Shown here: piece by piece, positions 5,580 through 47,247 of the stretch
Position numbering within the stretch: the first letter of the stretch is position 1
How the letters are laid out: each line of letters opens with the position of its first letter
Source of the DNA: an uncultured Pseudomonadota bacterium
GTDB taxonomy: Bacteria; Pseudomonadota; Alphaproteobacteria; RF32; CAG-239
Reading direction: 5' to 3'
DNA length: 64,000 nt
NCBI GenBank assembly: GCA_949297185.1
Contig: CASFRM010000006.1
Coordinates: 16,374-80,373, forward strand
The notes under the pieces: model-generated
What the model saw: only the letters and a program-made list of their open reading frames with translations
Database searches by the model: none
What the model was told of the DNA's origin: nothing
Program-made: the position numbers and the translations under genes

Positions 5580-8500
5580 CTATCTGGCGTTTGCGTTTCC
5601 TTTCAAATTATAAGTGCCGCCATGTGGTTTGTTTGACTTTCCGCGAGGTAGAGGCGTTCTCGATGTATCACGAGCCGCTGTCAACTTTGCATGTTCGGCA
5701 TTATTCTTTCCTATTGACGCAATTTCGGTAAAATGACGCAGTGTCATATCCTTAGTTGCCAGCGGCTTTCCGTCATAAGACAAGTTTGTTTTCCAAGCTG
5801 TCTCTCTGGTAGAATTTATATACTCCATCCCTTTTTTAGTTTCTGCAGAGCCTTTAGAATCATTGAGAGGTTCGGTTGCATAACCAACCTCTTTTTCAAA
5901 AGTATTCCATCTTGTTTCAAGGTATATGCCGAAAGATGCCTCTGCATTTTCTTCTTTCCATTCGTTTTGTACTAAAGATTTGTAACGGATACGCTCAGAT
6001 TCGTTTGGCTTAATACCGTGGACTACTTTATATTCACGATCAAGCATTTCATTTATGGATGAATCTGTATACTCCGGCAAAGCTTTAGCCTCCTGATGCT
6101 CCGGCAAAGCTTTAGCTTCCTGATGCTCAGGTAGAGCCTTTAGTTCTTTCACAGGTTTAGGAGGATTTGGCGGAATAACAGGATCTTCGCGCTCATCTTT
6201 GTTTTTGCGTTTTCCGTTAGCTCCCATAATAACATTCAAAAATTTGCTCTTAGCAGAGGTCCAAACCTTATCAAACGTAACGGTAAACGGAATAAAGCTG
6301 TGTTGTTCGGCTTTAGAGAATTGGTCAAACCTTTCATGATGAGCTTCTTCCGGAATATTAATAATTTCTTTTCCGGCCGCACCACCGGCATAGGTCGTAA
6401 ACACGGTTCCTTTACCACTTTCAGCATGTACCATTTCTCCTGCTTCATTTGCAGTTGCATTACGAGGCAAGACCCCATCATGATGAACCGGCGCGTTATC
6501 AACATGTCCTACTTCATTGTTTGCCGAAACCAGATTATCAAGTTTGGCGATAGTTTCCATAACCTCAGGAGTGAGTTTTTTAGGAATTAAATTACCATTT
6601 TCGTCAGTTATTGCTGCTACAGCTTTAATTTCTTCCGAACTAAAGCCGTATTTGCTACACCATCCTTCACCAAACACTTTGTGGTTTCCGTTTACTTCAA
6701 CCGGAGTATTACTGTTGTCAACATGGTTGAGGTTTGTATCGACCTCGGCATTGACCATCTGAGCTCCGCAATCACCTGCAATCAACAAAGCACGGTGTAC
6801 ATCAACGGCTTGTTCAGGGTGTGAAGCATTCCATTGTTCAATAGTACTCTGAGCCGCATTAACATTATTCTCCAGCAAATCAGGAACATCTTTGGTCCAT
6901 CTTTCCAAAATATCTTGAGCTTTTTCGGTAGCATTATCAAGATATCTGACCTCTGTTTTTGCGGGTTCATCAATTATTTTTACGCCATTTGCATCATCCG
7001 CATTAGTTTCTGAGCGAATAATGCCGTCTTCGGCAAGACTTGCATCATCTCTACCTAACAAATTAACGGCATCTTCTTTAGTAATGGGTTCTTTTAGAAC
7101 TCCGTTTTCATTAAGCTCATCAGGAGTCATGTTTTTATAATCATTTAACTCCTCGCCCGTAACCACGGTTTTGGTATAACTTGCATCATTAGGATCGTAC
7201 TCATCGGCTCTGACTTGTCTGGTTCCGTGTTCTCCCCACAAATCAAGCGATACATTATTCAGATGTTCTGATGCCAAGTTAACTCCGTACGATAATCCCA
7301 TGCCGCTTAATACGGCAGTACCGGTAGAAAGGGATGAGTTTGTGACAGATTTCAAAATAGCCTTACCCCATTTATCTCCGGCTTTTCTATTGTTGTGAAC
7401 TCCTTTGATAACCGATGTTGCAAAACCAAAAGCCATCATACCATAGCGAGCTGCTGCCTGCATACCATGTTCGGCAATTTTACCTCCGAACACAATTGCC
7501 GTGGTTGTTGCCGCGGTCATCAAAATCTCAGGAGATTTTTGCAATAGGAATTTACCAAAGAATTTTAATCCCTTCTCCTTAGATGCTTTCCGCTCTTCAA
7601 TATAGGATCTTGTTAATCTGTAAATAGCTTGAGTAGCATAAACACCGGCATAAATTTGTGAGCCAAGTCCCGGTACTCCCAAAGCCAAACCGGCGGTATT
7701 GCAACCGATTCGCAAAGCTTGGTTAAGAGCTTGGGCTCCCATATTTTTAGCCATCATTTTACCGAAAGTTCTGACAACCTCATAAGATTTGCCGAAACGA
7801 GCAATACAAGTCTTATCAATTTTAGCTATTGGAGCATACATTTTGCTCAAAACCGGAGCAGCACGATTTTTAAGGTGAGCCTTTCCGGCCAAGCGATTCA
7901 AAAAGCTGACATGGTTGTTAACTGTTGCAGCTTGAAAAGCTGCCAACCCTTTATCGGAAATTGGCTCATTACTGTTTAGTGCTTTTCCTATAGCCTCTCT
8001 GCGTTGTTCATCGGTAGCATTTTCCGGCAAATTGGCAAGAGCATCAGTTGATTTTAGAGTATTAATATATGTTCCGGTAACCACTTGCAGTTGATTTTTT
8101 AATTCGTCGGCAAGGGCTTGCTTATCCTTACCATATGCGGCTACAGCTGCATTTCTGACTGCTGTTAATTTAATGGTTTCAATAAATGTTTCTTTTTTCT
8201 TATCAGCATCGGGATTTTCAAAATTCAAGCTCTGAAACCAGGTTCCGGTTTCTGCAAACCAAGTTTCATTTTGCTTTTTATCGTTAACATCGATATTTTT
8301 AGCAATTTCCCAAGCGTCATCAAAAGCCTCTTCAAGCTTTTTGTCATCGCCTTCTTTTACATCGACCAAGCCATTTATTCTGTCATAATTATCAATGGTC
8401 TCGTTCATGCGATTTCTGGCAGCATTAAGCTTATTAGCCAAATCCTGTCTTACATTTTCCGGCAAGCGAGAGAGGTTGTTTTCTATATAATCGAACATCT

Positions 8501-9140
8501 CCATAGCGCCGTCATAAACATCGGCGACATTGCTTCCATCGACAATAATATCGCCTAAAACATAGCCGTTAAGCTTGCTATACATAGCCTCCAAGAGGAC
8601 CTTGCCTTGTGTTTCAAGAGAGGCAAGTTCGTCTTCTTTTCCGTTCTTTCCTTCAAGTCTTTTATCAATATCCTGACTCATCACTACCAACTGATGCGGC
8701 GGCATAACCTCGGCCAAATCTTTAGCCTTTTGTATCAGAGAAATATTAAATTTAGACAATTCCGGAGCATTAAGATTGTCTTTTAATTCTTGAATTTTGT
8801 CTTCTTTTTCTTCAGGGGAAAGGTTGGCAAAGTCCTTTGGAAATTTATCTTCCAAAACATCTTTTAAAGCAGTGATTTCCAGACCTTCGGTCATTTTAAG
8901 GCTATCATATGTCGCTTCCAAAAAAATCGGAGCTGTATCTCCATCAACGCTTCCGTCCAATAACTGTTTCCACTCATCCGAAGTATAGCCTGCAGCAGAA
9001 GATTGAGCCGTTTGCGATTTCAAAGGAGTATTGTTTTTGGGTTTATCCTCTGAGTTGATATTCTCTTTATTTTTAGAAGCAACAGATTGCATCTGATTTC
9101 TTTTTTCATCATCGTCTTCTTCGTTTACTTTAATAGCCAT
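5580..9140 (-). CDS. Large hypothetical protein (1186 aa), candidate secreted effector
   Basis: Long uninterrupted ORF with no recognisable family. No signal peptide and an acidic N-terminus. A central Gly/Ala-rich hydrophobic block is encoded around 7290-7740. Contains a KALPEHQEA tandem repeat and a basic C-terminal tail. Confidence 0.8.
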   Translation of the reverse strand: MAIKVNEEDDDEKRNQMQSVASKNKENINSEDKPKNNTPLKSQTAQSSAAGYTSDEWKQLLDGSVDGDTAPIFLEATYDSLKMTEGLEITALKDVLEDKFPKDFANLSPEEKEDKIQELKDNLNAPELSKFNISLIQKAKDLAEVMPPHQLVVMSQDIDKRLEGKNGKEDELASLETQGKVLLEAMYSKLNGYVLGDIIVDGSNVADVYDGAMEMFDYIENNLSRLPENVRQDLANKLNAARNRMNETIDNYDRINGLVDVKEGDDKKLEEAFDDAWEIAKNIDVNDKKQNETWFAETGTWFQSLNFENPDADKKKETFIETIKLTAVRNAAVAAYGKDKQALADELKNQLQVVTGTYINTLKSTDALANLPENATDEQRREAIGKALNSNEPISDKGLAAFQAATVNNHVSFLNRLAGKAHLKNRAAPVLSKMYAPIAKIDKTCIARFGKSYEVVRTFGKMMAKNMGAQALNQALRIGCNTAGLALGVPGLGSQIYAGVYATQAIYRLTRSYIEERKASKEKGLKFFGKFLLQKSPEILMTAATTTAIVFGGKIAEHGMQAAARYGMMAFGFATSVIKGVHNNRKAGDKWGKAILKSVTNSSLSTGTAVLSGMGLSYGVNLASEHLNNVSLDLWGEHGTRQVRADEYDPNDASYTKTVVTGEELNDYKNMTPDELNENGVLKEPITKEDAVNLLGRDDASLAEDGIIRSETNADDANGVKIIDEPAKTEVRYLDNATEKAQDILERWTKDVPDLLENNVNAAQSTIEQWNASHPEQAVDVHRALLIAGDCGAQMVNAEVDTNLNHVDNSNTPVEVNGNHKVFGEGWCSKYGFSSEEIKAVAAITDENGNLIPKKLTPEVMETIAKLDNLVSANNEVGHVDNAPVHHDGVLPRNATANEAGEMVHAESGKGTVFTTYAGGAAGKEIINIPEEAHHERFDQFSKAEQHSFIPFTVTFDKVWTSAKSKFLNVIMGANGKRKNKDEREDPVIPPNPPKPVKELKALPEHQEAKALPEHQEAKALPEYTDSSINEMLDREYKVVHGIKPNESERIRYKSLVQNEWKEENAEASFGIYLETRWNTFEKEVGYATEPLNDSKGSAETKKGMEYINSTRETAWKTNLSYDGKPLATKDMTLRHFTEIASIGKNNAEHAKLTAARDTSRTPLPRGKSNKPHGGTYNLKGNANAR
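6074..6143. repeat. 27-bp tandem repeat (2 full units plus a partial) inside the 1186-aa ORF
   Basis: Unit ccggcaaagctttagcYtcctgatgct at 6074-6100 and 6101-6127, with a degenerate third unit to ~6143. Encodes KALPEHQEA repeats on the minus strand. Confidence 0.9.
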
Positions 9141-10567: not shown

Positions 10568-11476
10568 ATGCCGTTGGAGAGTGTCAGCAATAAAGTTGAC
10601 GGCGTTGCCGGATGGGATAAAACGGTTGCCGATGTAAACAATATTGATGAAAATTTTGCCAATGCCCGTGACTTAGGTTATGCGCGTTTGAACAACTCGC
10701 GTATATCTGTTATTGCCCAACTGGGTAAATACGACAACAAAGACATGTACATGGTTCAGGTACAGTCCAACGGTAAATTATTTGTAAACCTCCGCACCGG
10801 TAACTCCACCGGAGACGAAAAAGTTTTGGATTTATCCAAATACGACACTACCCTTAACGAGATAAAAGCAGATTTGGAAGCAATGGGTGTCAAGACCGAA
10901 GAAGAGGTTATTGATACTACTCCCAAAACTCCATACGATATTGCCAAAGCCGAAGTTGAAAAAATGAAAGCCGAGAGAGAAGCCGAAAAAGCAGGCTTGC
11001 TTGATGATATTGCTCCGGGAATGACAATAAAGGTTTATATGAAAAAGGGCAATCGCACTATATGTTTGGGAGATTCTACAGCAGATAAAAATTCTGATGA
11101 ATATGCAATTATGAAGTCGATTCTTTCCGGTGAATACAAGGCCAAAAAAGGAATGTATTATATTGAGGTGGGCAGTGCGGAAGAAACTCCGAAAGAAAAT
11201 ATACCCTACATTATGCAAATTAAGCAAGGCGACAAGTACATAAACGACTATTTGGTTACCGAAACAGAGTCTGAAGATAGCAAAAACGAAACCATATCCT
11301 TAACATCATCCACTTCATCTTCGGAATATATTTCCTCGGCCTATGCTGCACAAATACAAGCACAGAAATATGATGCTACGGTAACCATGATGACCAACGC
11401 TTATCAAAATCTGGCCTCAATCAAAAATAAGCAAACCGGAGCCGCCAAGATGTTTTCAACTTTGTTAAATGTATAG
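10568..11476 (+). CDS. Hypothetical protein (302 aa)
   Basis: GGAG RBS 8 nt upstream. Clean ORF followed by a terminator. No family recognised; the C-terminus is Ser/Thr-rich. Confidence 0.6.
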   Translation: MPLESVSNKVDGVAGWDKTVADVNNIDENFANARDLGYARLNNSRISVIAQLGKYDNKDMYMVQVQSNGKLFVNLRTGNSTGDEKVLDLSKYDTTLNEIKADLEAMGVKTEEEVIDTTPKTPYDIAKAEVEKMKAEREAEKAGLLDDIAPGMTIKVYMKKGNRTICLGDSTADKNSDEYAIMKSILSGEYKAKKGMYYIEVGSAEETPKENIPYIMQIKQGDKYINDYLVTETESEDSKNETISLTSSTSSSEYISSAYAAQIQAQKYDATVTMMTNAYQNLASIKNKQTGAAKMFSTLLNV

Positions 11477-11528: not shown

Positions 11529-11693
11529 ATTCTCGGGACACCATACATACCTACCTCCTCGGACACCACACATAAAGTCATCCTCGGATTTATTCCGTGG
11601 GGCTACCATATGTCGTCATCCTCGGATTTATTCCGAGGATCTCATACGCTATAGCACATTGTTTCATTAGATTCTCGGGACAAGCCCGAGAAT
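11529..11693. repeat. Cluster of short palindromic hairpin repeats (GTCATYCTCGGR-loop-YCCGAGRAT family)
   Basis: gtcatcctcggatttattccgaggatctca at 11614-11644, a degenerate copy at 11577-11602, and attctcgggacaagcccgagaat at 11671-11693. The same family occurs at 34178-35244. Confidence 0.75.
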
Positions 11694-11700
11694 AACTGGT

Positions 11701-13431
11701 CTAGAATGTACTCAGTATACTTTGTGCTGATTGAGAGGCAAGAGATAGGGAATTAATTGCTAACTGTTGACGCGTTTGCAAAGTGAGATATTGTGCCGAA
11801 GCCTCGTTCATATCGGCCAAGGTCAAATTATCGGCTCCGGTTTCCAACACATCGGTTAGAGCCTCGGTAAAATTAATACGGGTTTTAATTATTGAATAAT
11901 GATTGCCGAGTTCCTCTTGAAACGAACGGATTGAATTAACCGCTTTGGTTATTTCTTCCAACGACTTTTTAATTGCCGAGGTGTCAAACAAATCCCTAGT
12001 TTCTAACCCCAGCGACATACTATCAGCCAAAACACCGGCAATGCTGTATTTATTAGAACGACTTTCGTTAAAAGTAACTTCTAAATTGCCGCCCTTAAGC
12101 AGATTAATTCCCTGATACGAGCTGTCGTTCAATAAGTTGTCATATTCTTCCAATATTTTTTTGTATTGCTCGGCATAGTTATTTTCTTTAACCTCAAAAG
12201 CTTCTTCCAACTGTTTTTCTAAGGTACTTACAAAATCCGCCGAGTTTTTACTGTCTTCTTTTTTGGTCATAAATTGATCGTAATCGCCATTGGTTATAGT
12301 CGGCACGGTAACAGTTTGCCTAGCTACCCAATGAGACATAGCTACAGCATTTTTATTGGCTAAGTAAAATTCGGTGTTTATACTAACCACACTAGTGGGG
12401 TCTGAAAATTTGATAGCTGCACCAAATTTGGAAATAGCATATATGTATGCTGAAATTGTACAGTCTTTCACAAAATTTATTCCTGCAGCACCACCACCTT
12501 TGGCCTCAAGATTAAAAACTCCAGCAATTGATGATGATGTTATTTGAGCACAATGAGCACCTCCTCCAATAGTTGAAATATTACATTCTCCTACAAAACT
12601 TGAAGCATTTAACCACATTCCACTTCCATTTCCGAAGGTTTTTATATTTGTTGTTCCAGAAAAAACAGAACTAACTACATTTATACCTATTGCAACATAA
12701 CCATTTGTTGTAGCATTTAAATTACCACTAGCATTACTTTTTGACAAGTACACGGCATTTGCTCTGTCACCAGTTGTATTAATATTAATGTTATCAAAAT
12801 TTACCGTTGAATTACTTATGCTAACACAGTTTGAACTGTATACACTTAACGAATTAAGATTAACCGTGATATTTTGCAATGTGCATCCATCTTGCACAGT
12901 AAGCATACTATAAGTTTTGTTGGTATTATCTGTTCTTGTAAAATTCAAGCTGACATCTTGGGTTAGGCCGGCGAGGGTTTTGCCTTTAGTGAGGGTTATG
13001 GTTTCATTATCGGCAAAGGTCAAAGATTGAGTAACCACAATTTTATCAATATTACTGTCAGCAATAGCGGCTTTTAATTCCTCTACTGTTGATACTCTAG
13101 TATAGTCGCTAAAATCATATTTGACATTGCTTGCCGCCTTATTAACTACCGCGGTTGCTTGCTCCAAAAATTCCGCTCCCGAAGTCAAACCTTGGGTTGC
13201 AGCTTCAATAGTTTGGATACCTTGCCCCATCGCATCTAAAAGAGCGGTCAAATCAGCCGCCCGATTGGTCAGAGAGCGCGCTTGGTAATAGCTGGACGCA
13301 TTGTCTATCGCCGAGTTCACTTCCTTTCCCGTCGCTAAAACAAGCTGAGTTTTATCCATTTGTTTGGATATATTTCTCAAACTTAGCAAATTATTGCGCA
13401 TTGAGGCGTTTAAGGTGATGTTGTTATTCAT
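11701..13431 (-). CDS. Flagellin-like protein with a large non-flagellin central domain
   Basis: The N-terminus (ITLNASMRNNLLSLRNISKQMDKTQLVLATGKEVNSAIDNASSYYQARSLTNRAADL) and C-terminus (ADMNEASAQYLTLQTRQQLAINSLSLASQSAQSIL) look like flagellin D0/D1 helices of the alphaproteobacterial flagellin-like (DUF1522-type) group. The middle ~300 aa is rich in N/S/T/G/I/V periodic strands. Confidence 0.72.
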   Translation of the reverse strand: MNNNITLNASMRNNLLSLRNISKQMDKTQLVLATGKEVNSAIDNASSYYQARSLTNRAADLTALLDAMGQGIQTIEAATQGLTSGAEFLEQATAVVNKAASNVKYDFSDYTRVSTVEELKAAIADSNIDKIVVTQSLTFADNETITLTKGKTLAGLTQDVSLNFTRTDNTNKTYSMLTVQDGCTLQNITVNLNSLSVYSSNCVSISNSTVNFDNININTTGDRANAVYLSKSNASGNLNATTNGYVAIGINVVSSVFSGTTNIKTFGNGSGMWLNASSFVGECNISTIGGGAHCAQITSSSIAGVFNLEAKGGGAAGINFVKDCTISAYIYAISKFGAAIKFSDPTSVVSINTEFYLANKNAVAMSHWVARQTVTVPTITNGDYDQFMTKKEDSKNSADFVSTLEKQLEEAFEVKENNYAEQYKKILEEYDNLLNDSSYQGINLLKGGNLEVTFNESRSNKYSIAGVLADSMSLGLETRDLFDTSAIKKSLEEITKAVNSIRSFQEELGNHYSIIKTRINFTEALTDVLETGADNLTLADMNEASAQYLTLQTRQQLAINSLSLASQSAQSILSTF

Positions 13432-13520
13432 CTCTCACCTCCCGCCCATTCGCGATAAATCATATCATTTTGGCTAAGTCGATTCGTATGTATTTTAAAC
13501 ACAACAAAACTTTCCGCCAT

Positions 13521-13529
13521 ATTATAGCA
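13521..13529 (-). promoter_or_regulatory. Candidate extended -10 promoter element for the flagellin-like gene
   Basis: The minus strand reads TGCTATAAT (TGnTATAAT) about 90 nt upstream of the start codon. No convincing -35 element. Confidence 0.3.
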
Positions 13530-13609
13530 GAAAGCCCACAATTCCTCATTAAAGAGGCTATGTCTCAATCCTTGTGACAACAATTCTGTTGCGTCCTTAT
13601 ATCTTATTT

Positions 13610-13651
13610 CCTTAAGAAAATCCCGTATGGTTAATTACTCCATACGGGATT
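13610..13651 (-). terminator. Hairpin plus T-run (minus strand), probable terminator isolating the tRNA-Arg region from the flagellin-like gene
   Basis: Perfect 12-bp stem aatcccgtatgg / ccatacgggatt (13619-13651). On the minus strand it is followed by TTTTCTT. Confidence 0.45.
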
Positions 13652-13710
13652 CATCATACCAAAATTTTTCTTAAAAAGGAATTAATTTATTATATGTAAA
13701 CCAAATTTTG

Positions 13711-13796
13711 TGGTTCGAAAACTGCCGGAAAAAAAGTAACAAAAAAACCTCTGTTCAATTTGGAGGCTTTTACAAAAAAATGGCGCGCCCGGCAGG
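13711..13796. repeat. Direct repeat copy 1: 3'-terminal 16 nt of tRNA-Arg plus its downstream terminator/flank
   Basis: The ~86 bp from tggttcgaaaactgccggaaaaaa to ttttacaaaaaaatggcgcgcccggcagg is near-identical to 13967-14053, which overlaps the real tRNA-Arg 3' end. Confidence 0.9.
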
Positions 13797-13966
13797 CTAC
13801 AAGCTACAAAAACACCGTTGCTCCGGTGTTTTTTAGCGCAGAAGGCGAAGTTTATTTATCTTATAAGCGGCGGAGTAATCAGTCGCTTATAAGATTAAGA
13901 AACGAGAGACCGCAGCGAGTTAGCTTTTGACGCTGTTGCGTCAAAGCTTATGAGCCAGATGAACCT
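13797..13966 (+). other. tRNA-linked conserved noncoding element, copy A (candidate miniature integrative element or structured RNA)
   Basis: 170 bp between the two direct repeats and homologous to 32382-32583. The 57-nt core at 13904-13960 (gaccgcagcgagttagcttttgacgc-loop-gcgtcaaagcttatgagccaga) is nearly identical to copy B except in the hairpin loop. Two further hairpins lie upstream of the core. Confidence 0.55.
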
Positions 13967-14053
13967 TGGTTCGAAAACTGCCGGAAAAAAAGGTAACAAA
14001 AAAACCTCCGTTTTACTTGGAGGCTTTTACAAAAAAATGGCGCGCCCGGCAGG
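13967..14053. repeat. Direct repeat copy 2 (native flank plus 3' end of tRNA-Arg)
   Basis: Counterpart of 13711-13796. Includes the tRNA terminator hairpin (gcctcc...ggaggt plus T-run on the minus strand). Confidence 0.9.
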
Positions 14054-14114
14054 ATTCGAACTTACAACCTTCTGATCCGTAGTCAGATGCTCTATCCAAT
14101 TGAGCTACGGGCGC
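14038..14114 (-). tRNA. tRNA-Arg (anticodon ACG)
   Basis: The reverse complement folds as a 77-nt cloverleaf, GCGCCCG-TA-GCTC...GAGC-A-TCTGA-CTACGGA-TCAGA-AGGTT-GTAAG-TTCGAAT-CCTGC-CGGGCGC-G-CCA. CCA is encoded. The T stem has one A:C mismatch. Confidence 0.93.
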
Positions 14115-14321: not shown

Positions 14322-15416
14322 ATGACAAAAATCGCAAAAATATCATCTTTGGTACTGGCTATGGCAGCTCTTAGCGGCTGTACATATTCTTCGGATGCAA
14401 TATTCCCCTCGCTTTTTGGTGAAGATGTTGAGAATGTATCAAGTGAAAATGATGCCAAAACTGCCGGTATAGTTTTAGGAACTACAAATTTTGAACCGGT
14501 CAATATTTCAGAGGTAAATAATACCGGAACTTTTGTTGGGCAAAAAGTTCTCACATTTCGTAATGAATTAAGCCAATTACAGACCTCAATTAAAGAAAAT
14601 AATGCCGAATTGCAAAAATTGAGAAGCTCTGTTGTTAATAATGCTCTGCAATATCATAAAACTATTGGTATGATTGAGGCAAAATTACAAGTTGGTACCA
14701 CCCCCGGTAACCCTTTGATGTATGAGATGTTGGCAAAAGCTCAGAATAATATTCAGGTTATGAGCACCAACTCGGCAAGTCTTAATCAGTTGTCAGCCAA
14801 AGTTGCTGCCGACACTGCCAATACTGACTATTTGGTAGATGCAATTCGTTCGGCTTATAGCATATCAGGTGCCGTCGATGAAGACCATGTCCAATTGCGT
14901 ACACTGGAAAATGAAGCCGGACAGACCTCTATCTTGATGCACTCATTATTAAATGAAATTAATAGTGATATTTCTCGTCAACAACAATATGTTGATACGG
15001 CAAATAACAACATTGTCAAATTGAGTGACGCAATCAGAGTCGGTAGTTATGGAGTTAATAATGTCCCGATGGGCAACATGCCGATGATTGGTAATGCTAA
15101 CACAACTCGTGTAAATTCCAAGGCATCTCCGGCCATGATAAGCGGCAAGCCGTTGTTGGCAATTAAATTTTCTTCACCCGATGTCAAATATCAAGAAGGC
15201 TTAAAACAAGCTGTGGCCAATGCTGTAGCCAAAAAGCCGGATATTATTTTTGATGTCGTAGCCGTTAATCCGGCAAGAGGAGGCAGTGCACAAAAATATG
15301 CTTCTGAGGTTTTTCAAGATATAATAGACCTCGGAGTTAATGCCGACAAGGTAAATATTTCTTCAAAAACCGATGCTAAAGCCAAATCTCCGGCAGTCAT
15401 GGTTTTTGTTCGCTAG
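14322..15416 (+). CDS. Hypothetical lipoprotein (364 aa)
   Basis: Signal peptide with lipobox LSGC (MTKIAKISSLVLAMAALSGC). Coiled-coil-like middle region. Followed by a strong terminator. Confidence 0.7.
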   Translation: MTKIAKISSLVLAMAALSGCTYSSDAIFPSLFGEDVENVSSENDAKTAGIVLGTTNFEPVNISEVNNTGTFVGQKVLTFRNELSQLQTSIKENNAELQKLRSSVVNNALQYHKTIGMIEAKLQVGTTPGNPLMYEMLAKAQNNIQVMSTNSASLNQLSAKVAADTANTDYLVDAIRSAYSISGAVDEDHVQLRTLENEAGQTSILMHSLLNEINSDISRQQQYVDTANNNIVKLSDAIRVGSYGVNNVPMGNMPMIGNANTTRVNSKASPAMISGKPLLAIKFSSPDVKYQEGLKQAVANAVAKKPDIIFDVVAVNPARGGSAQKYASEVFQDIIDLGVNADKVNISSKTDAKAKSPAVMVFVR

Positions 15417-36167: not shown

Positions 36168-36773
36168 CTAGTAATATACCCATGTAATATCCGGAGTGGC
36201 TTTATTTTCACCCTCAGGATAGCATAAACCGTCTGCGGCATCCATAGATAACGGCAATTCTGAGGATTTCTTGCCTTCGTCGCCAATTATCATTCCCATC
36301 ATGCCGTCAGAACCCCAATCAGCGGTAAGCATAGACATACATGCATCAGCAGTCAAACCTTCCATTTTAATATAAAAATACCCGTCTCCTTCAGCACCAA
36401 CATCAGTACAATCACTCTCACCACAAGCACTTACCGTGACTGCTCCGCCAAAAGCCCCATTCAACTCACCGCCATCAGCATCGGCAATCATATCTGCGGA
36501 AACCAAGTTAAATTTTGCAGCGGTGGCATTATCCAGACCATTATAAGTCGGACTGGAAGCATAGGCCGTACGCACATTCATAAGGGTCATTGTTATTTGA
36601 TCTTGAGCTTTTGTAAGTTTAAATTTTGCCATAGCCTTAGAATAACCGGCAATACCACCGACCGACAAGACGCCGACAATAGCCAACACACCAAGCATTT
36701 CGACCATCGAACGACCGGATTCATTTATTTTAGCACCTGATAACATTTTTTTATACTCCATAAAATTAAGCAT
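36168..36773 (-). CDS. Type IV (IVb-like) prepilin, analog of R64 PilS
   Basis: Class III signal: leader ending in G, then RSMVEMLGVLAIVGVLSVGGIAGY with Glu at +5. Four Cys in the C-terminal globular part. The true start may be the internal ATG at 36746. Confidence 0.7.
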   Translation of the reverse strand: MLNFMEYKKMLSGAKINESGRSMVEMLGVLAIVGVLSVGGIAGYSKAMAKFKLTKAQDQITMTLMNVRTAYASSPTYNGLDNATAAKFNLVSADMIADADGGELNGAFGGAVTVSACGESDCTDVGAEGDGYFYIKMEGLTADACMSMLTADWGSDGMMGMIIGDEGKKSSELPLSMDAADGLCYPEGENKATPDITWVYY

Positions 36774-36873
36774 TTCTAATTATCTATTATACACTCATGT
36801 TTGTTTTTATACAATTAAAAACTCCATTTAGGGACATTCTATACTCAAATAACTTAAAATAAAGTAAACAATC

Positions 36874-37464
36874 CTATTGTTCAAACCTAAAAATTACTTT
36901 ATTTACGTCGTCACAGACATCAGCAACATTATTTCGTTTTGCCGGCAAAGCAAACTCCTCGTTACTCCAGCTAAAAATCTGCTCAGATTTATTATTCTTG
37001 ATTACTAATTCGCTGACCGATAACCAAAAATCGTGTTCAAATTGATGTGAAGCCAAGGCTATACATTGTTTTTTATTTAAGTCGTTATAAGCAATTACAA
37101 AACTCCTCATTGACGGCATAACTGCCATACCGCTTTCATCAGCTCCAATCTCCACATCATTAGCAAAATATCCTTTTAACTTGCCGTTTTCTACCCGCAT
37201 ATCGGTCGGATAAAGCTTCTGATTTATCACTTCTTTTGTGCTTAAACCCCAAAAGTCCGGTCGCATCTTATAAGCCCCGCAGATGTTTTTTGCCAAAATT
37301 GTAACTTGATTACCGGCCTCAAAAGCGCCCACATTTTGCTGTCCGCGAACTATTGCTAATAAAGACAAGGCCAAGGCAAACACAATCACTGCCGAAATTA
37401 TGGCAACCTTCCATTGGCAAAACATTACCCACAAAATTGTAAAAAAGGCTTTTATCTTTCCCAT
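36874..37464 (-). CDS. Hypothetical bitopic membrane protein in the pilus operon (minor-pilin-like or PilM-like?)
   Basis: A single N-terminal TM (VAIISAVIVFALALSLLAIV) and a ~150-aa periplasmic domain with 3 Cys. Lacks a G/xxxxE prepilin site. Confidence 0.5.
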   Translation of the reverse strand: MGKIKAFFTILWVMFCQWKVAIISAVIVFALALSLLAIVRGQQNVGAFEAGNQVTILAKNICGAYKMRPDFWGLSTKEVINQKLYPTDMRVENGKLKGYFANDVEIGADESGMAVMPSMRSFVIAYNDLNKKQCIALASHQFEHDFWLSVSELVIKNNKSEQIFSWSNEEFALPAKRNNVADVCDDVNKVIFRFEQ

Positions 37465-37473
37465 AGTTTCACC

Positions 37474-38610
37474 CTAAGTTCCCATATTGCTTGTAATTTG
37501 GTCTTGCATGTCAAAGGTTCCCATAACCGCCCAAGCAATAACACCACCGATAGCCAACAATGCCACCATGTTAAGAATTCCGGCTTTTTCTTCAATGGTA
37601 TAAACCGATTCTTCCAGCCACTCGTTAGCCAGATTGTCCAAAGCTTCTTCAAAGTTATCTAATTCGGAGTATATTTTCAAATCGTCAATAATTTCCTTAT
37701 CCGGAAACACCAAGCCTGTTTTTGCCAAAGCTTGCCCCAAGTTATCACCGTTATTGACATAAACCAAAGTCTTATCAATTCGTTCTTTTAGATATTTGGT
37801 TGCATCACGCCGTAACGCACGCAATGCCGTAGAAACCGGAGTTCCCCCCTTAACCAAAGCGGCCATAGCCAACAACCAACTAATTCCGACGAAGGTTTTA
37901 TATAATGACCATGGCGGAATGTTGTCAAATACGGCTCTTATTTTTCCGGTCCATATACTGATGGTAAAATATATGACAGCCATTAATATAGGCAAAGAAG
38001 AAAAAGCGATTAACCAATTGTCTTTAATCCATGCCGACAAGTCAACCAAGTCTCTGGCAAGACCTGTCCATTTAACATTCGGAGCAGCATCAATCATTGG
38101 CGGCACCATGTACACACCAATAGCATAAATGATCAAAATTGCCATCATCATCAAAAAGCTCGGATAAGAAATTGCTCCGATGATAGGTCTAATCATTTTG
38201 GTCGAGCCCTCGGTAACTTTAATCAGGTTTAACAAAGCACCTTCCAAGTCTGATACATCACCTACCGAAAGCATCAATCTTTCTCTGTCCGGAGCCCAAC
38301 CTTTTAAAGCATCGGAAAAAGTATTACCGTTATTTAAGCTTCTTCCCCAAGCAGCAATGGCAATGGCCAATGGTTCCCCGGGGTTTTTTCCTCCGTTTGA
38401 TGCTCCATCGTGTAACATATCCAGAGCATCCATCAATGAAAAGCGGTTACGCATCAAAGAGGCAATTTTACGATAGAGCTTCAATCTGGTCTTACTTGCA
38501 AACATAATCATTAAGCGGGCGTACATTTCCTCGGCTTTGTTAAGATTACGCATCGCTTTTTGTAAAGATTTTGAGTTTTTTTTCTTACTTACCAGTTCTT
38601 CATCAACCAT
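37474..38610 (-). CDS. Type II/IV secretion platform protein (GspF/PilC family; analog of R64 PilR)
   Basis: 378 aa. Two T2SSF-like repeats and three TM segments. Operon position is directly after the ATPase. Confidence 0.85.
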   Translation of the reverse strand: MVDEELVSKKKNSKSLQKAMRNLNKAEEMYARLMIMFASKTRLKLYRKIASLMRNRFSLMDALDMLHDGASNGGKNPGEPLAIAIAAWGRSLNNGNTFSDALKGWAPDRERLMLSVGDVSDLEGALLNLIKVTEGSTKMIRPIIGAISYPSFLMMMAILIIYAIGVYMVPPMIDAAPNVKWTGLARDLVDLSAWIKDNWLIAFSSLPILMAVIYFTISIWTGKIRAVFDNIPPWSLYKTFVGISWLLAMAALVKGGTPVSTALRALRRDATKYLKERIDKTLVYVNNGDNLGQALAKTGLVFPDKEIIDDLKIYSELDNFEEALDNLANEWLEESVYTIEEKAGILNMVALLAIGGVIAWAVMGTFDMQDQITSNMGT

Positions 38611-38625
38611 TTTATCGCCCTCAAA

Positions 38626-40299
38626 CTAGTATACCGGACGCTGATCAAGCAATCCGCACCATCTTTCAACTTCGTCCAAATCAATAAGTCCTTTGAGCAT
38701 TCGCTCCATGGCAGCTTCTTTTAATGTTCTGCCGTTCAAATCCGATGTCCAATAATCGATTGCACGTCGTGTTTCACCCTTAATCATCAATTCCAAGAAT
38801 GTTGCATCCGGCAAAATAATCTCGGGCACGCACATACGCCCCTTAATACCAGTGCCGTTACAGAACTTACATCCCGGACCACGGACATAAGTATTTTCCA
38901 CACCAAAGTCACCCAAGGCCGTACGCAAACGACTAAATGACGGATCATTTTGTCTTTCTTTAACCGACATCCTGCAATGCGGGCAAAGCTTTCTGAATAA
39001 GCGTTGAGAAATCAACCCCTTAATCAATTCTGGGTCAAGCAGCTTAAAAGTTTCAACCCCCATATCTCTAAAACGGTTAATAATTGCCGGAGCAGAGTTT
39101 GCGTGTAGGGTAGACCACATTCCGTGACCTGACAAGGCACCTTGGAAAGTAAGCTGTGCTGCCGCTAAGGCTCTGATCTCGCCCACCATAATAACATCAG
39201 GGTCCGAACGCAAAGCTGCCGACAAAGCTTTGGTAAATTGTTCGGCCTTTTCTTCCTCGGTATTGGCGTTTGTAACCGGCATTTGTCTTGCGCCCGGAAT
39301 TGGGTACTCAGGAGGATCTTCCACCGTCAACAAATTAAGCTCATAATTTTTTTCTTGCAAAAGCTTAATCATATTTCTTTGCAAAGTGGTGGATTTGCCC
39401 GAACCGGTGGGGCCGGCAACGATGCTCATTCCGACCGGAACGGCGCGTAAACGATAAAATAAATCTTCTTCAAATTGACCAAAGCCCAGAGCCGCCAAAT
39501 CACCTGAACCATCAGGATTATCATCGGCATAAAGTAAACGCATAACCAAATATTGCGAGCCGAAAGCAATTGGGTTAAATTGCAAACGGATAGCCAATAC
39601 ATTATGTGGCAGCATCAATTTGCCCTTAGAACCTCTCAGCGGAGTAGAACCTAATTTCTGTGCTCCTTGGAATTCGTTTTGCGCATAGTTTGAGTCAGAA
39701 ATATCTGCCGAAGCAAAAGCTGCGCGGACAAATGATTCGCCCCATTCTTTATTATATTCCATCTCAACTTGCATCATACCGTTAACTCTAAACATAATTA
39801 CGGTATTATCAGCGACCACGACATGAATATCCGACACCTTTTTGCTTGCAGCTCTTGCCACCACATTAACAAAGTCTTTTTGCATTTGTAGTTGGTCAAG
39901 CTCTGCATCAGCCGAAACTTCTTCGGCAGCTTGAGCACGCTCGCCTATTGCGTAAATCGCATTTAATTCATTTTGCGAAACATATGTTGGTTTCGCAATA
40001 GCAACTTTCTTCTTACGAGCCAAAACCTCAAAGCTTAAAACTCGTCCGTCAAATTTATGGGCTTCTACAACCAAAAAACGGCCATCAGAGAATAAAGCCA
40101 AAAGTCTTCTGGTATCATCATTTACGGCCAGCGGTGAACCGGGTAGGGTAAGGAGCTTGTTATTATTAGAAAAATAAACCTCGGTTATTGAGCCTTTCTC
40201 AGCCTCCGATGCTTTATCAGCGTCTTCAGACACAGGAGCAGCCGAGGCTGGAGCCTCGGCTTGAGTTAAGTTTTTTTCCTGCTCTTCAGAATTTTCCAT
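38626..40299 (-). CDS. Type II/IV secretion ATPase (GspE/PilB family; analog of R64 PilQ)
   Basis: Walker A GPTGSGKST, Asp/His boxes, Walker B DPDVIMVGEIR, and a tetracysteine motif CPHC...CKFC. Confidence 0.92.
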   Translation of the reverse strand: MENSEEQEKNLTQAEAPASAAPVSEDADKASEAEKGSITEVYFSNNNKLLTLPGSPLAVNDDTRRLLALFSDGRFLVVEAHKFDGRVLSFEVLARKKKVAIAKPTYVSQNELNAIYAIGERAQAAEEVSADAELDQLQMQKDFVNVVARAASKKVSDIHVVVADNTVIMFRVNGMMQVEMEYNKEWGESFVRAAFASADISDSNYAQNEFQGAQKLGSTPLRGSKGKLMLPHNVLAIRLQFNPIAFGSQYLVMRLLYADDNPDGSGDLAALGFGQFEEDLFYRLRAVPVGMSIVAGPTGSGKSTTLQRNMIKLLQEKNYELNLLTVEDPPEYPIPGARQMPVTNANTEEEKAEQFTKALSAALRSDPDVIMVGEIRALAAAQLTFQGALSGHGMWSTLHANSAPAIINRFRDMGVETFKLLDPELIKGLISQRLFRKLCPHCRMSVKERQNDPSFSRLRTALGDFGVENTYVRGPGCKFCNGTGIKGRMCVPEIILPDATFLELMIKGETRRAIDYWTSDLNGRTLKEAAMERMLKGLIDLDEVERWCGLLDQRPVY

Positions 40300-40326
40300 T
40301 TTTCACCTTAATTAATCAAATCAAAG

Positions 40327-41664
40327 TTATAAAGGAGTAGATATTAAACCAGATCTGGAATTATTGTTGTTCACACTGGAAGCATTACTGCCCTGTGCTT
40401 GAGCAGCTTGCATTCTGGCAGCAACTTCAGGATCAAGCTGGAAGCCGGATGTTTCCATTGGAACTATGCCGCCGGCAGAAAAATAGAGGTAACTTTTACT
40501 GCTTCCTTTACTTGCTGCAACATAAGTTGTGGTAATTTCATCTACAATATGTCCTGATTGCAGAGCCGTTCCTTTTTTAACATAGAAAGAGACACCGCCT
40601 GTATTCAGTAATTTTGCAACCAATTCTCCACCTTGTCCTCTAATTTCGGTAACGGCATATAGTTGCGATAAATCAGTTTCCACCGGCTCATTGGCGGATT
40701 TTTCTGCGGAACTATCTTCGTCACTGTTGGGGGTGGCACTACCATTTGCAAAAGGATTATTTCTCATTTGCTCATTCTCTCTTTCCAGAGTTTCTGTTCT
40801 CTGGCGCAGAATGTCAATTTGGGCTCTCAGGTTCTCAGCATCTTTTTCATATTGATCAACCTTAGCCATAAAAGATTTTTTAGCATCGGTAGCTGCGGTA
40901 TTCAATGCCGTAACCTTTGTTTTCATGTCTTCCAAAAGTGCTTTTTTAGAATTTCTCAAGTCCTCAATTTGCTTATAAAATTTGGCATTATTTTCAATCC
41001 AGAGTTGGTTTTCTTCAAGCATTTTGTTTTTGTATGCTCCCAATACTCTTTCCTGACGCAAGGTCTCAAATTTTATATCCAAATCGCGTAACTTTTGTTG
41101 TTCAACCAAAACCTTCTGCTCTTGTTCTTTTTCAAAAGCCAAATTTTTAAGCTTTAGTTGCTCGATTCTCTCTTTTTCTTGCTGCAAAGCTTGGCGTCGC
41201 TGATTTTTTACGGCTTCAATCTCATTTTTAAGCTTTTCTCTCTTTAATTCCAAGTTCAAAAGAGCTGTTCTTTTTTCAATATCAGACATCTGTGAAAACA
41301 AATCAGTGCCCTCGGCAGTGGCGTTTTCCTGCTCTGCAAGCAGAGTTAACTCCTCAGCTCCGCCGTTGTTATTATCTTCCTCCACAATGTCAATTTCGCT
41401 GACCAAAACATCATTTGCCAGCGGTAAAGGAGCATTTGCAGACTGTTTTGGAGCATTGATAATAGGCAACTCTGGAGAAGTCTGCCCTTCTTCGGTTATA
41501 TTTGGAACTTCTTGTGCCGGCAATTCCATTTCTGTATCCAAGCCATCGTCAAACATAGCTTCTTCTGACAAAGAAACTAAACCCTGAGCCTTTACTTGTC
41601 CAGCCGCAAGCGCCAAAGAACAAAAGATTGTCGTCAATAATAAATTTAAATTCTTACAAGACAT
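40327..41664 (-). CDS. PilP-like pilus biogenesis protein with a long coiled-coil insertion
   Basis: Start reset to the ATG at 41664 (AAGGAG RBS 7 nt upstream). Signal peptide and a ~250-aa E/K/Q-rich coiled coil. The C-terminal beta domain (LYAVTEIRGQGGELVAKLLNTGGVSFYVKKGTALQSGHIVDEI) resembles PilP/GspC HR domains. Confidence 0.5.
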   Translation of the reverse strand: MSCKNLNLLLTTIFCSLALAAGQVKAQGLVSLSEEAMFDDGLDTEMELPAQEVPNITEEGQTSPELPIINAPKQSANAPLPLANDVLVSEIDIVEEDNNNGGAEELTLLAEQENATAEGTDLFSQMSDIEKRTALLNLELKREKLKNEIEAVKNQRRQALQQEKERIEQLKLKNLAFEKEQEQKVLVEQQKLRDLDIKFETLRQERVLGAYKNKMLEENQLWIENNAKFYKQIEDLRNSKKALLEDMKTKVTALNTAATDAKKSFMAKVDQYEKDAENLRAQIDILRQRTETLERENEQMRNNPFANGSATPNSDEDSSAEKSANEPVETDLSQLYAVTEIRGQGGELVAKLLNTGGVSFYVKKGTALQSGHIVDEITTTYVAASKGSSKSYLYFSAGGIVPMETSGFQLDPEVAARMQAAQAQGSNASSVNNNNSRSGLISTPL

Positions 41665-42988
41665 ATATAGCTCCTTCATAATGCCAAACATTATTGTCTG
41701 GTGAATAGGTTATCAGTCTAAACTCAAGACCTGAATATTTTGTTAACAATTTTGCCCACACAGTCGGATCATGTGGCGAACTAAAAGAAAACTTTAGCGC
41801 TCTAAACACTGTAGGCTGCTGAGTTGGAACTCTCGCCGCTGGCCCTTTACCCTTGGGGGCAGCTTGCGCGGGTGCACTAGTCTTAATTGTTTCTTCCGAC
41901 AAAGAAATCTGCAACCCCAATGACTGAAATTGATTGTTTATTTTATTACGCAAGTCGACCATATTATATTCCGGAGGGGATAATAATTGCGGTGCCGGTT
42001 CCAAGTTTATAGAGGCAGTAATATTGTTTCCGGTATTATCAAACTGGTATCCCGCAAACTTGATTCCCGATTTTTCTAAAGCGTCACTCATCCAATCCAT
42101 AATGCCGAACTCTCGTCTCCACGATGTCGCTACAAAGTTTTTTGAGCAGCTTATCAAACCAATATCCCATCCGGGAGGCATAATCTGCGCCAGCTGATTA
42201 ATTCCCTCAAAGCACCTATCCATAACCTCTGCTGGATTATTAATTTTTTCCCATGGTTTAGGAACTTCTTTAACCTCAACCGGTTGAATAACTTTCGGTC
42301 TAACCGGGACGGATACTGGTCTTTTAACCGGTGTAAAAAATATTTTATCAACCAAAGTTGAAACCAACCATAATCCAACGACGGCCGAAACCACAACAAC
42401 GGCAATCAGTTTAGAACCTCGTAGGCCTTTTATCTTCTGTAACTTGGCTTTGGCACCACGGGAAAGTAAATCGCCCAAGTCTGCATCTTCGGTGTCGTCA
42501 AGTCCCCACTCTGCCGGAGCAATTTTCTTACCCCAATCAGGCACTGCCAACATTGATAAGAACTGATTTTTTGCTTCTTCTTCATTCAAAAACAGCATAT
42601 CGCCGTCAGATAAGATGATATCATTACGAACGCATGTATACCACCAACCTTCTTGAGTTTTAAAAACCGCAACGAACGAAGATACATCGGATAAAGCTGT
42701 AACCAAAGCCACAATTGCTGATGATTGCCCTTTTTTAAAGCCTTCATGCGATACACAAATACCAAACTGAGGAGCTTTACCTCCTTTTATACAGAACAGA
42801 TCAGCACCTTCTAAGATACTATTTGAAGCATCTTCAACTTCCTGCAAATAATCCTTGGCATTTTGTAATGGCTGCCAGAACAAACTTGTAGCGTAACTAA
42901 TGCCATCGACATTAATTGATGTGCCCCAAGTCTTACGGGAGTTTCCTCCCTCTAAATCGTCATCTAACAGCTTTGCTTCATCAAGCAC
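41654..42988 (-). CDS. PilO-like (R64-type pilin accessory) protein
   Basis: 444 aa with a cytoplasmic N-domain, one TM (LIAVVVVSAVVGLWLV) and a periplasmic C-domain. Size and position (between secretin and PilP-like) match R64 PilO. The call rests on synteny only. Confidence 0.4.
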   Translation of the reverse strand: MLDEAKLLDDDLEGGNSRKTWGTSINVDGISYATSLFWQPLQNAKDYLQEVEDASNSILEGADLFCIKGGKAPQFGICVSHEGFKKGQSSAIVALVTALSDVSSFVAVFKTQEGWWYTCVRNDIILSDGDMLFLNEEEAKNQFLSMLAVPDWGKKIAPAEWGLDDTEDADLGDLLSRGAKAKLQKIKGLRGSKLIAVVVVSAVVGLWLVSTLVDKIFFTPVKRPVSVPVRPKVIQPVEVKEVPKPWEKINNPAEVMDRCFEGINQLAQIMPPGWDIGLISCSKNFVATSWRREFGIMDWMSDALEKSGIKFAGYQFDNTGNNITASINLEPAPQLLSPPEYNMVDLRNKINNQFQSLGLQISLSEETIKTSAPAQAAPKGKGPAARVPTQQPTVFRALKFSFSSPHDPTVWAKLLTKYSGLEFRLITYSPDNNVWHYEGAIYVL

Positions 42989-43010
42989 TTTTTTATCTCC
43001 TGCAAAGAAG

Positions 43011-44621: not shown

Positions 44622-45324
44622 CCTCCCTTGTTTCAACTACTAAGACACGGTTTCCTTTATAAAAAGTAGCCATGGGCGCAGGTTTTGCTCTGGCAAAATT
44701 TCTGATTAATGCCGAAGACACATCAGCAAATCTTCCTCTAAACATAGCTCCTGCAGCTAAAGTATAATTTCTGTTAGAATTCCATACCAATCTCCAACCG
44801 GATCTTTCGCACCAGTCAGAAAGTAGACCTTTCAAAGTGCTGCCTTCTTCCGCAAGCCAATCCTCGACTGCGTCGTCCCCGCTGTTATACTCAGCGTCGC
44901 TGGCATTTGCGGTTTCAGCTTCGGAAATAGCCTCGTTAACAGCTTCTTCGTAATCTGTAACTTCTTCATCTATTGTCGGAGGAATTGCAGCAGCCATATT
45001 GCTCCCGACACCGTTAGACAAGATGTACTGATCTGTAACACTTCTTTCGCCGAATTCACGATAATCAGCATCAGTCATTCTATAATCAACAAAACGGTCG
45101 TTAGCATTGTTCTGCGCGGTGGGCGTGATGGTGGGTGCCGGTTGATTTCCTTCTTGGGTGTAAATTACCACTTCCTCTACCGGCGCTTCCTCATCATTCC
45201 ATGGTAAGCTCCAAAGAGTATATGTATTGCTACATCCGCTAAGAGCAATAACAGACAATACCGCCAGAAGGCAATTCTTTTTTAAGTACATCTTTGCAAT
45301 CCTTTGAATAGATTTTCCCATCAT
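44602..45324 (-). CDS. TcpQ/PilL-like pilus lipoprotein
   Basis: Lipobox LSGC. The C-terminal STLKGLLSDWCERSGWRLVWNSNRNYTLAAGAMFRGRFADVSSALIRNF matches the TcpQ (toxin-coregulated pilus protein Q) / R64 PilL domain pattern. Confidence 0.7.
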   Translation of the reverse strand: MMGKSIQRIAKMYLKKNCLLAVLSVIALSGCSNTYTLWSLPWNDEEAPVEEVVIYTQEGNQPAPTITPTAQNNANDRFVDYRMTDADYREFGERSVTDQYILSNGVGSNMAAAIPPTIDEEVTDYEEAVNEAISEAETANASDAEYNSGDDAVEDWLAEEGSTLKGLLSDWCERSGWRLVWNSNRNYTLAAGAMFRGRFADVSSALIRNFARAKPAPMATFYKGNRVLVVETREDENAYN

Positions 45325-45378
45325 ATTTTCCTTATCATACTATTGAAAAATAAATAATCAAGCACCGTCAAACAGTTA

Positions 45379-47046: not shown

Positions 47047-47247
47047 AAGACAAACCCCTCTAAAGTCTAGATAAATCAAAATGCGACTCTTGGCAATAGC
47101 GGCATAAAAAAATCCACAAATTTTTAGAAAAAAATAAAAAATTTTGTTGAAATAAAAAAATCAAAAAATTGTAACACTTTTTAAGTAATTTATATGTTAT
47201 AATTTCTTCAATAGGATAAATTTGTCCCATAAGCTTGGCGAAAAACG

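Follow-up and report, generated by a model that had tools for sequence, protein, structure and literature searches.

A long flagellin gene with a predicted β-helix outer domain, one of about eleven mosaic paralogs behind a shared structured leader in a gut alphaproteobacterial genome

Closest described flagellins and the product of the gene

Multi-flagellin filaments are known, and the outer domains of flagellins are the sites at which new functions arise. The gene described here (positions 11701..13431, reverse strand) lies in a 64-kb stretch of DNA, the window, on contig C6 of a metagenome-assembled genome (MAG) of a gut alphaproteobacterium, and encodes a long flagellin of 576 residues with a predicted β-helix at its centre. 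The closest solved D0/D1 structures, with respect to both sequence and fold, belong to the Caulobacter crescentus FljJ-O system with FlbT and FlaF (6xl0, 8uxj, 8uxn, 9cef; PMC7591256). In that system, too, several flagellin paralogs feed one flagellum, and FlbT and FlaF are encoded in both genomes. However, the Caulobacter flagellins are about 270 residues long and have no outer domain, whereas here about 11 scattered copies carry a predicted β-helix of 250–430 residues, together with a structured leader that is absent from the short copies. The H-antigen flagellins of Escherichia coli and Salmonella likewise combine conserved C1/C2 arms with unrelated centres and no intermediates, and are exchanged by recombination with end-points in the arms (PMC7018530); in contrast to the present case, where about 11 paralogs coexist and each has its own promoter and leader, the H-antigens are alleles of different strains, each genome having one or two loci.

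A large non-canonical domain at the outer-domain position is also described for the flagellinolysins (PMC7643111) and the giant flagellins of marine gammaproteobacteria (PMC6248924), from which the present protein differs in lacking a metallopeptidase motif or catalytic signature, in its moderate length, and in fold and lineage. With the binding region of the Limosilactobacillus reuteri serine-rich-repeat protein (SRRP), an adhesin (5nxk, 5ny0), and with PF20585 the predicted central domain shares the character of a non-enzymatic, adhesin-type right-handed β-solenoid; the identity to SRRP is only 13–14% (TM-score ~0.33–0.36). SRRP is a Gram-positive protein that is exported by the Sec/aSec route and anchored in the cell wall, while the domain described here forms part of a flagellin. 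Similar in architecture is a minor cluster (#35) of a flagellin survey, which lists a pectate-lyase-like β-helix outer domain in one sentence (PMC11532411). The likeness, a D0/D1 core with such a β-helix, comes from prediction on both sides; the sentence in the survey gives no taxa, function, copy number or regulation, and multi-paralog cassettes and a leader RNA are not described there. Because the survey lists the fold, the gene itself belongs to a kind already noted, although in silico only; it is the organisation of the family and the leader that set the system apart. We found no literature on the flagellins of this gut alphaproteobacterial lineage, and no description of some 11 coexisting paralog forms in a 1.5-Mb genome, of arm homogenisation, or of a covarying leader RNA.

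The open reading frame (ORF) is intact. Its ends match Flagellin_N (PF00669; residues 7–102, 39.1 bits against a gathering threshold of 26.6) and Flagellin_C (PF00700; residues 492–574, 31.6 bits against 23), and between them residues 111–219 match Pectate_lyase_5 (PF20585, “putative pectate lyase-like adhesive domain”; 25.4 bits against 24.3), an annotation that is also precomputed for this protein and several of its homologs. With whole-protein scores of 168 bits for PRK12688 (curated cut-off 614) and 144 bits for PRK14708 (curated cut-off 1384), the protein is, as judged from its sequence, related to these NCBIfam families of large alphaproteobacterial flagellins without being a member of either. 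An AlphaFold2 model of the full-length protein, built with a 41-sequence alignment, has a complete D0/D1 core (helices 9–33, 45–102, 397–436 and 484–575, and a D1 β-hairpin at 449–465) and an all-β region at residues ~110–340, where the predicted local distance difference test score (pLDDT) exceeds 90.

A Foldseek comparison of the full-length model with the PDB matched the core to the filaments of Caulobacter FljK/L/M/N (probability 1.0) and the centre to pectate lyase, pectin methylesterase, L. reuteri SRRP and phage tailspikes; FljK/L/M/N are also the closest solved structures in a phmmer search of PDB sequences (E 5e-15), which retrieved Sinorhizobium FlaA as well. When the central domain was modelled alone (predicted TM-score 0.79), the 50 PDB matches listed were right-handed parallel β-helices only. 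The best of those listed was the SRRP adhesin binding region (5nxk; E 2.9e-4, probability 1.0), followed by pectate lyase B, PL6 alginate lyases and pectin methylesterases with query TM-scores of up to 0.46. A profile of the central domains gave no match in the PDB at E up to 10, so that the fold class is well supported and membership of an enzyme family is not. Sequence and model together identify the product as a genuine flagellin with a complete Caulobacter-type D0/D1 core, into which, in the model, a right-handed pectate-lyase-like β-helix of ~250 residues is inserted at the canonical outer-domain position.

These results bear out much of the original prediction, made from the letters of the window alone. 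It had assigned the termini to flagellin D0/D1 helices of the alphaproteobacterial type, and had described a central stretch rich in N, S, T, G, I and V with scattered cysteines, reminiscent of a β-helix and not of ordinary D2/D3 domains. These six residues make up 58.6% of positions 105–360 against 42% in the termini, there are five cysteines (183, 202, 283, 294 and 324), and PF20585, the AlphaFold2 model and all 50 listed PDB fold matches agree on the β-helix. Of its two options, a decorated flagellin or a repurposed flagellin-like protein, the first is supported.

Mosaic paralogs and a shared leader RNA

The gene is not an orphan, as had been proposed, but one of about 11 long paralogs that accompany six short flagellins. 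Flagellin_N matches the genome (G000; 1.51 Mb in 44 contigs, 94% complete) at 14 places, six of which are the short flagellins, with open frames of 296–370 residues clustered on contigs C20, C41 and C11, and eight of which fall within frames that are long or truncated. Of the long ORFs, seven are complete (576–687 residues). The estimate of about 11 long loci derives from the ~260 nt upstream of the start codon, which recur with 85–93% identity at 11 places in the genome, including three contig ends. The long loci are scattered round the genome. Outside the shared cassette and certain dispersed hairpins, the flanks of every full copy are unique, which argues for distinct loci and against strain variants binned together; a strain-duplicate artefact of the MAG was rejected on this ground.

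The N-terminal 105 residues are 78–95% identical to those of the other long paralogs and the C-terminal 156 residues 62–92%, whereas the central 315 residues gave no tblastn match to any long paralog of the genome. When the central domains of the paralogs are aligned, they are 19–24% identical to that of the 576-residue protein, and the central identity between other pairs runs from 60% (C39/C5) downward, with differing breakpoints. In DNA comparisons with the copies on C5, C39 and C12, identity is mostly 83–98% from −240 to about +300 (one 60-nt bin has 75–78%), falls to ~45% from +300 to +1260, and is mostly 80–95% from there to about +1680. At fourfold-degenerate sites, the arms differ by 22–37% from these closest long paralogs versus 62–84% from the short flagellins, to which the termini are 58–65% (N-terminal) and up to ~72% (C-terminal) identical at the protein level. 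The arms therefore go back to a far more recent common ancestor than the centres, a sign of gene conversion or of replaced cassettes; on the sequence comparisons, the arms of the long copies have recently been homogenised and their centres have diverged almost beyond recognition. Three of the short flagellins (338–364 residues; C11:260-1324, C20:1145-3389) carry an insertion of their own, ~80–100 residues rich in Thr, Gly and Asp, which sits past the D1 β-hairpin and so at a point different from that used in the long family.

Relatives of the full-length protein are numerous (678, mostly 550–820-residue “flagellins” from MAGs), whereas the central domain alone found two matches in a word-seeded search of 5.8 billion proteins and 10 in an exhaustive HMMER search of 1.84 billion representatives, the best non-self match being 35% identical. 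All 10 are proteins of 519–660 residues aligned at the same position; given these few matches the central domain is almost without relatives in public data, and there is no deeper central-domain family to exploit. Flagellin matches occur in 24 of the 24 congeneric genomes searched, several in most of them and many in frames of 550–800 residues, and two sister species have, at the same dnaJ-adjacent locus, a long flagellin whose arms are conserved and whose centre is unrelated. Among the homologs, one (P0082) carries both PF20585 and PF07603 and another (P0114) PF07603 only. The genome contains no reverse transcriptase (RVT_1), and a search of it for DUF1566/Lcl_C, run without a positive control, found none; the involvement of a diversity-generating retroelement was rejected for these reasons, and the diversity of the surfaces appears to be based on paralogs and not on retro-mutagenesis.

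The cassette shared by the long copies and absent from the short flagellins consists, from 5′ to 3′, of an A/T-rich box with an extended −10 element, a 9-bp hairpin (P1) with a U-run, a core of ~100 nt, a variable spacer and the Shine-Dalgarno sequence. The promoter-like box is conserved across the 11 loci and recognisable in three other genomes (G015, G008 and G004), with an extended −10 consensus of TGnTAtaaT over the four species; by eye, no sigma-28 or sigma-54 promoter consensus was found upstream. The U-run (13614–13621) directly follows P1; in the G015 versions of this hairpin, inspection of the alignment by eye shows compensatory changes at three pairs (CUCGUGCGG/CCGCACGAG). The hairpin of the core comprises 12–14 bp (GGCUUUCUGC...GCGGAAAGU). 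It and the outer stem were predicted by RNAalifold from 14 aligned copies of four species, and the covariance model built from these copies (R1) scores 115 bits on the core in the window, the leader of which has a folding z-score of −5.7 relative to shuffled controls. Against Rfam the leader scores no better than 19.8 bits, where the gathering score is 59, and no match has an E value below 0.4.

R1 was found in 15 of 56 genomes of the genus, in up to 13 copies per genome and typically 8–13 where it is well represented. In 33 aligned matches 94.7% of cells pair, versus 44–52% when the partners are slid by 1–3 columns, and 14 of the 26 pairs have changed on both sides; the covariation score is 0.379 versus 0.10–0.14 in the slid controls, and none of 500 shuffles reached the observed values. 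The comparative data thus mark the leader as a covarying structured RNA without an Rfam family, previously undescribed. In 24 of the 32 copies within fetched loci, a flagellin start codon lies 12–198 nt downstream on the same strand; the others are at contig ends (four), before flagellin remnants (three) or, in one case (L115), a weak match that looks like a plain terminator and was discarded as a false positive. Since the copies precede flagellin starts, remnants or contig ends, the motif appears specific to the long flagellins. Two of the three remnants, both in the congener G060, are clean internal deletions that join the first 9–12 codons to the C-terminal end: both keep the leader and the start codon, L118 fusing 12 N-terminal codons to the last few C-terminal codons and L128 fusing nine codons to the C-terminal 80 residues. 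These collapsed ORFs are probably products of recombination between the arms. Tracts of 9–10 C residues between the leader core and the Shine-Dalgarno sequence (L092 and L096 of G004, and the end of contig C8 in G000) are candidates for slipped-strand phase variation, and are absent from the copy in the window.

In Caulobacter, as long as the hook-basal body is unfinished, FlbT and the regulatory flagellin FljJ keep flagellin transcripts from being translated; FlaF is the secretion chaperone (PMC7591256). As both FlbT and FlaF are encoded here, the leader is a plausible target of the same circuit. CsrA was also considered as a reader of the AAGGA-rich leader; a tblastn search with the E. coli protein found no CsrA, the best E value being ~6.

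Flagellar gene set and surroundings of the gene

The coordinates of the gene, its predicted domains and the elements that flank it are collected in Table 1.

Table 1. Features of the long-flagellin locus, in positions of the window
Feature	Position	Strand	Basis
Long-flagellin coding sequence, complete, 576 aa + stop	11701..13431	-	ORF list, translation, Pfam Flagellin_N/Pectate_lyase_5/Flagellin_C
Shine-Dalgarno sequence GGGAGGTG, strong, 5′ of ATG	13436..13444	-	Sequence; kept in paralogs (upstream-region alignment)
N-terminal D0/D1 helices, residues 1 to ~104, conserved 5′ mosaic arm	13120..13431	-	Model helices; paralog identity
Central outer domain, residues ~105–357: conserved cap helix, then hypervariable right-handed β-helix (predicted)	12361..13119	-	PF20585, pLDDT, fold matches
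Low-confidence linker, residues ~358–397, between β-helix and C-terminal D1	12241..12360	-	pLDDT <50
C-terminal D1/D0 helices, residues ~398–576, + stop codon, conserved 3′ mosaic arm	11701..12240	-	Model; identities
Dispersed hairpin-repeat elements, similar to repetitive extragenic palindromes (REP-like), immediately past stop codon	11557..11697	.	Flank blastn; repeats D5, D6, I2
Promoter-like box (putative): A/T-rich element AAATTAATTCCTTTTTAAGA + extended −10 (TGgTATGAT, 13653–13661)	13653..13693	-	Conservation
Hairpin P1, 5′-proximal, CCCGUAUGG...CCAUACGGG	13622..13648	-	Sequence, fold
Leader RNA core: outer stem (ACGCAACA/TGTTGYGT) around conserved single strands (CAAGGAUUGA) + hairpin	13497..13598	-	Covariance model, RNAalifold

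The original prediction had further stated that the 64 kb hold no fli, flg, flh or mot genes. This is correct: Pfam scans of most of the large ORFs found no flagellar family in the window, and none of the genome-wide matches to FHIPEP, FliF, Flg_bb_rod, FliP and MotB lies on its contig. The flagellar genes are elsewhere in the genome. They comprise FlhA, FliF, FliP, FlgH, FlgI, FlgA and seven rod/hook-family genes, FlgD, FlgE, FliG, FliK, MotA and MotB, weak matches to FliH and FliO, and, as regulators, FlbT, FlaF, a sigma-54 activator and an FlhG/MinD-like ATPase. This inventory covers the export gate, the MS, P and L rings, the rod, the hook and its length control, the switch protein FliG, the stator and regulators. 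A single flagellar system is apparent, as only one FlhA and one FliF were found, and the flagellar gene set of the genome is, on sequence matches, largely complete, which contradicts the suggestion of a non-motile symbiont. The combination that the original prediction had named as speaking against it is found in one half: a flagellar regulon exists elsewhere in the genome, and no match of the centre to known D2/D3 folds was obtained. An additional ORF of 220 residues with two tandem FlaF domains (60.6 and 46.4 bits; G000 C3:66979-67641) is distinct from the canonical FlaF on C17.

The remaining window holds housekeeping ORFs (LapA, AccD, DnaK, DnaJ, RpsA, Cmk, YidC, RnpA and similar) and several ORFans. 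The closest records to its DnaJ come from MAGs of human and animal faeces; “Ca. Scatocola” stands at ~70–72%. Around the dnaK-dnaJ-flagellin region lie three ORFs without a Pfam or NCBIfam match, of 1186 residues (5580-9140, -), 302 residues (10568-11476, +) and 364 residues (14322-15416, +), the last with a lipoprotein-type N terminus ending in LSGC. Palindromic hairpins with TCTCGGG/CCTCGGA cores, resembling REP elements or miniature inverted-repeat transposable elements, occupy 11529-11697, between the convergent 302-residue ORF and the flagellin stop codon; the same family occurs 3′ of other long flagellins and at unrelated loci (C5, C11, C12, C13, C23, C24, C33 and C39), and in flank blastn the elements listed in Table 1 are 85–94% identical to copies on these eight contigs.

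A tRNA-Arg(ACG) gene lies at 14038-14114 (-). Directly upstream of the flagellin promoter cassette, ~95 nt are duplicated with 88–89% identity (13711-13805 and 13967-14062, 257 nt apart), the unit consisting of the 3′ 25 nt of the tRNA, its terminator hairpin and the sequence that follows. Site-specific integration usually leaves such a repeated tRNA 3′ end behind, but here only ~160 nt of hairpin-rich DNA lie between the two units. Farther along are an operon resembling type IV pilus or type II secretion loci (36168-47079, -; a T2SSF platform protein, a T2SSE ATPase, a secretin, a TcpQ-like protein and several ORFans), a XerC/D-type tyrosine recombinase (49330-50226, -) a 1424-residue ORF (55144-59418, +) and a VirB4/TrbE-like ATPase (59870-62299, +). 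The recombinase, this ORF and the ATPase may together be conjugative or related to a type IV secretion system.

Possible roles of the long flagellins

The reading we favour, and regard as somewhat better than evenly supported, is that the gene encodes a filament subunit bearing a variable β-helix coat, that is, a genuine flagellin with about 11 mosaic paralogs and a shared structured leader. The protein would leave the cell unfolded by way of the flagellar type III system, chaperoned by FlaF, and would polymerise into the filament via D0/D1, probably mixed with other flagellins or in segments. The β-helix would then fold on the filament surface to give a thick coat, the surface of which is set by the cassettes expressed; adhesion to glycans or mucus, or antigenicity and the identity of the phage receptor, or both, would vary with it. 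Through their common leader, all long copies would be subject to a single post-transcriptional control, most plausibly a FlbT/FlaF circuit that ties the translation of flagellin to a finished hook-basal body.

Several points weigh against this reading. Polymerisation of a subunit with such an insert is argued from the conservation of D0/D1 alone. The pass of PF20585 is marginal, its score barely exceeding the cut-off, and the fold matches are modest, with TM-scores of 0.3–0.46 and E values of ~1e-3 to 1e-4, so that only the fold class of the central domain is established. The extended −10 element was not called by a sigma-70 scan, the promoter having been assigned by eye. The covariation values come from an alignment fitted to the model, and copies within one genome are not independent. 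By analogy with Caulobacter a link between the leader and FlbT/FlaF is plausible but circumstantial; the short flagellins lack this leader. Finally, the number of long copies is approximate, several paralogs of the 44-contig assembly being cut by contig ends.

A bolder proposal, possible though on balance doubtful, is that the ~11 long genes constitute programmed surface variation, in which β-helix cassettes are held between gene-converted arms and the common leader selects among cassettes or couples translation to assembly via FlbT/FlaF.

Among readings that dispense with a decorated filament, the one that survives best, although we judge it unlikely, is that the protein is an exported flagellin homolog and not a propeller subunit, acting free or on the cell surface as an adhesin or receptor for host or dietary glycans. 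Cell-surface flagellin homologs of Sphingomonas sp. A1 bind alginate; here the central domain matches an “adhesive domain” family, its best listed fold match is an adhesin, and the six short flagellins could form a filament by themselves. Nevertheless, D0/D1 is complete and highly similar to that of the short flagellins right up to the extreme termini, which build the core of the filament, and some 11 copies with homogenised polymerisation arms are hard to explain without assembly. Size is no obstacle, since outer domains as large or larger are compatible with filaments (PMC6248924, PMC11532411).

Alternatively, the filament might display thousands of copies of a catalytically active β-helix, a polysaccharide lyase, hydrolase or esterase, in a manner comparable to the flagellinolysins. 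Its fold class is common to pectate lyases, PL6 alginate lyases, pectin methylesterases, polygalacturonases and phage tailspike depolymerases, and enzymatic flagellins exist (PMC7643111; cited in PMC11532411). However, the 576-residue protein has no Pfam match to a lyase, hydrolase, esterase or peptidase family and no HExxH motif, the feature that defines flagellinolysins, and the PDB holds no sequence match to such an enzyme. Among 41 homologs and seven paralogs, conservation is confined to residues of the cap module (E118, L119, A122, I131, L153 and G155), with no invariant or near-invariant charged or catalytic-type residue in the body of the helix, such as the Asp/Glu cluster and the Arg/Lys base that serve catalysis and Ca2+ binding in the β-helix enzymes, and the 8–10 coils estimated from the strand pattern of the AlphaFold2 model are few for an enzyme with this fold. 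The enzyme reading was dropped for want of a catalytic family and of conserved residues in the helix body, and we consider it improbable. In view of the affinities to PF20585 and SRRP and the absence of a conserved polar residue from the helix body, an adhesive or purely structural-antigenic role is favoured over catalysis.

Just as improbable in our estimate is a silent archive, in which few loci are expressed and the others donate cassettes by recombination between arms, as in the antigenic variation of pilins. The sharp mosaic boundaries, the homogenised arms, the variation of breakpoints between paralog pairs, the internal-deletion remnants L118 and L128 in a congener, and the different cassettes of sister species at the same locus would all fit. 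Silent cassettes, however, normally lack a promoter, leader, Shine-Dalgarno sequence and full ORF of their own, whereas every complete copy here has an intact promoter-like box, leader, Shine-Dalgarno sequence and full-length ORF; moreover, a search that was not exhaustive found no invertible element or recombinase associated with the loci. The suggestion of an orphan protein, repurposed in a symbiont that is without flagellum and motility, for which the lack of flagellar genes in the 64-kb window had spoken, is refuted by the inventory, from export gate, rings, rod and hook to FliG, stator, regulators and at least 16 other flagellin genes, and retains hardly any likelihood.

On the reading of a decorated filament, the family bears on an organism of a lineage that is uncultured but widespread in the gut, where flagellin ranks among the chief targets of the host's innate and adaptive immunity and serves many phages as a receptor. 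An estimated ~1–2% of the 1.5-Mb genome is given over to flagellin genes (~17 genes of 0.9–2 kb), and about 11 adhesin-like β-helix coats with unrelated surfaces point to strong and continuing selection on the filament surface. The paralogs form a natural series of display cassettes compatible with D0/D1, and the shared leader is a candidate new cis-regulatory RNA, supported by covariation, that may act in the post-transcriptional control of flagellins in alphaproteobacteria, which is little understood. If the β-helices bind mucus or dietary glycans, the flagellum would be a multivalent adhesin besides a propeller, and programmed variation, if it occurs, would let a gut commensal with a reduced genome re-coat its flagellum with different adhesive or antigenic surfaces.

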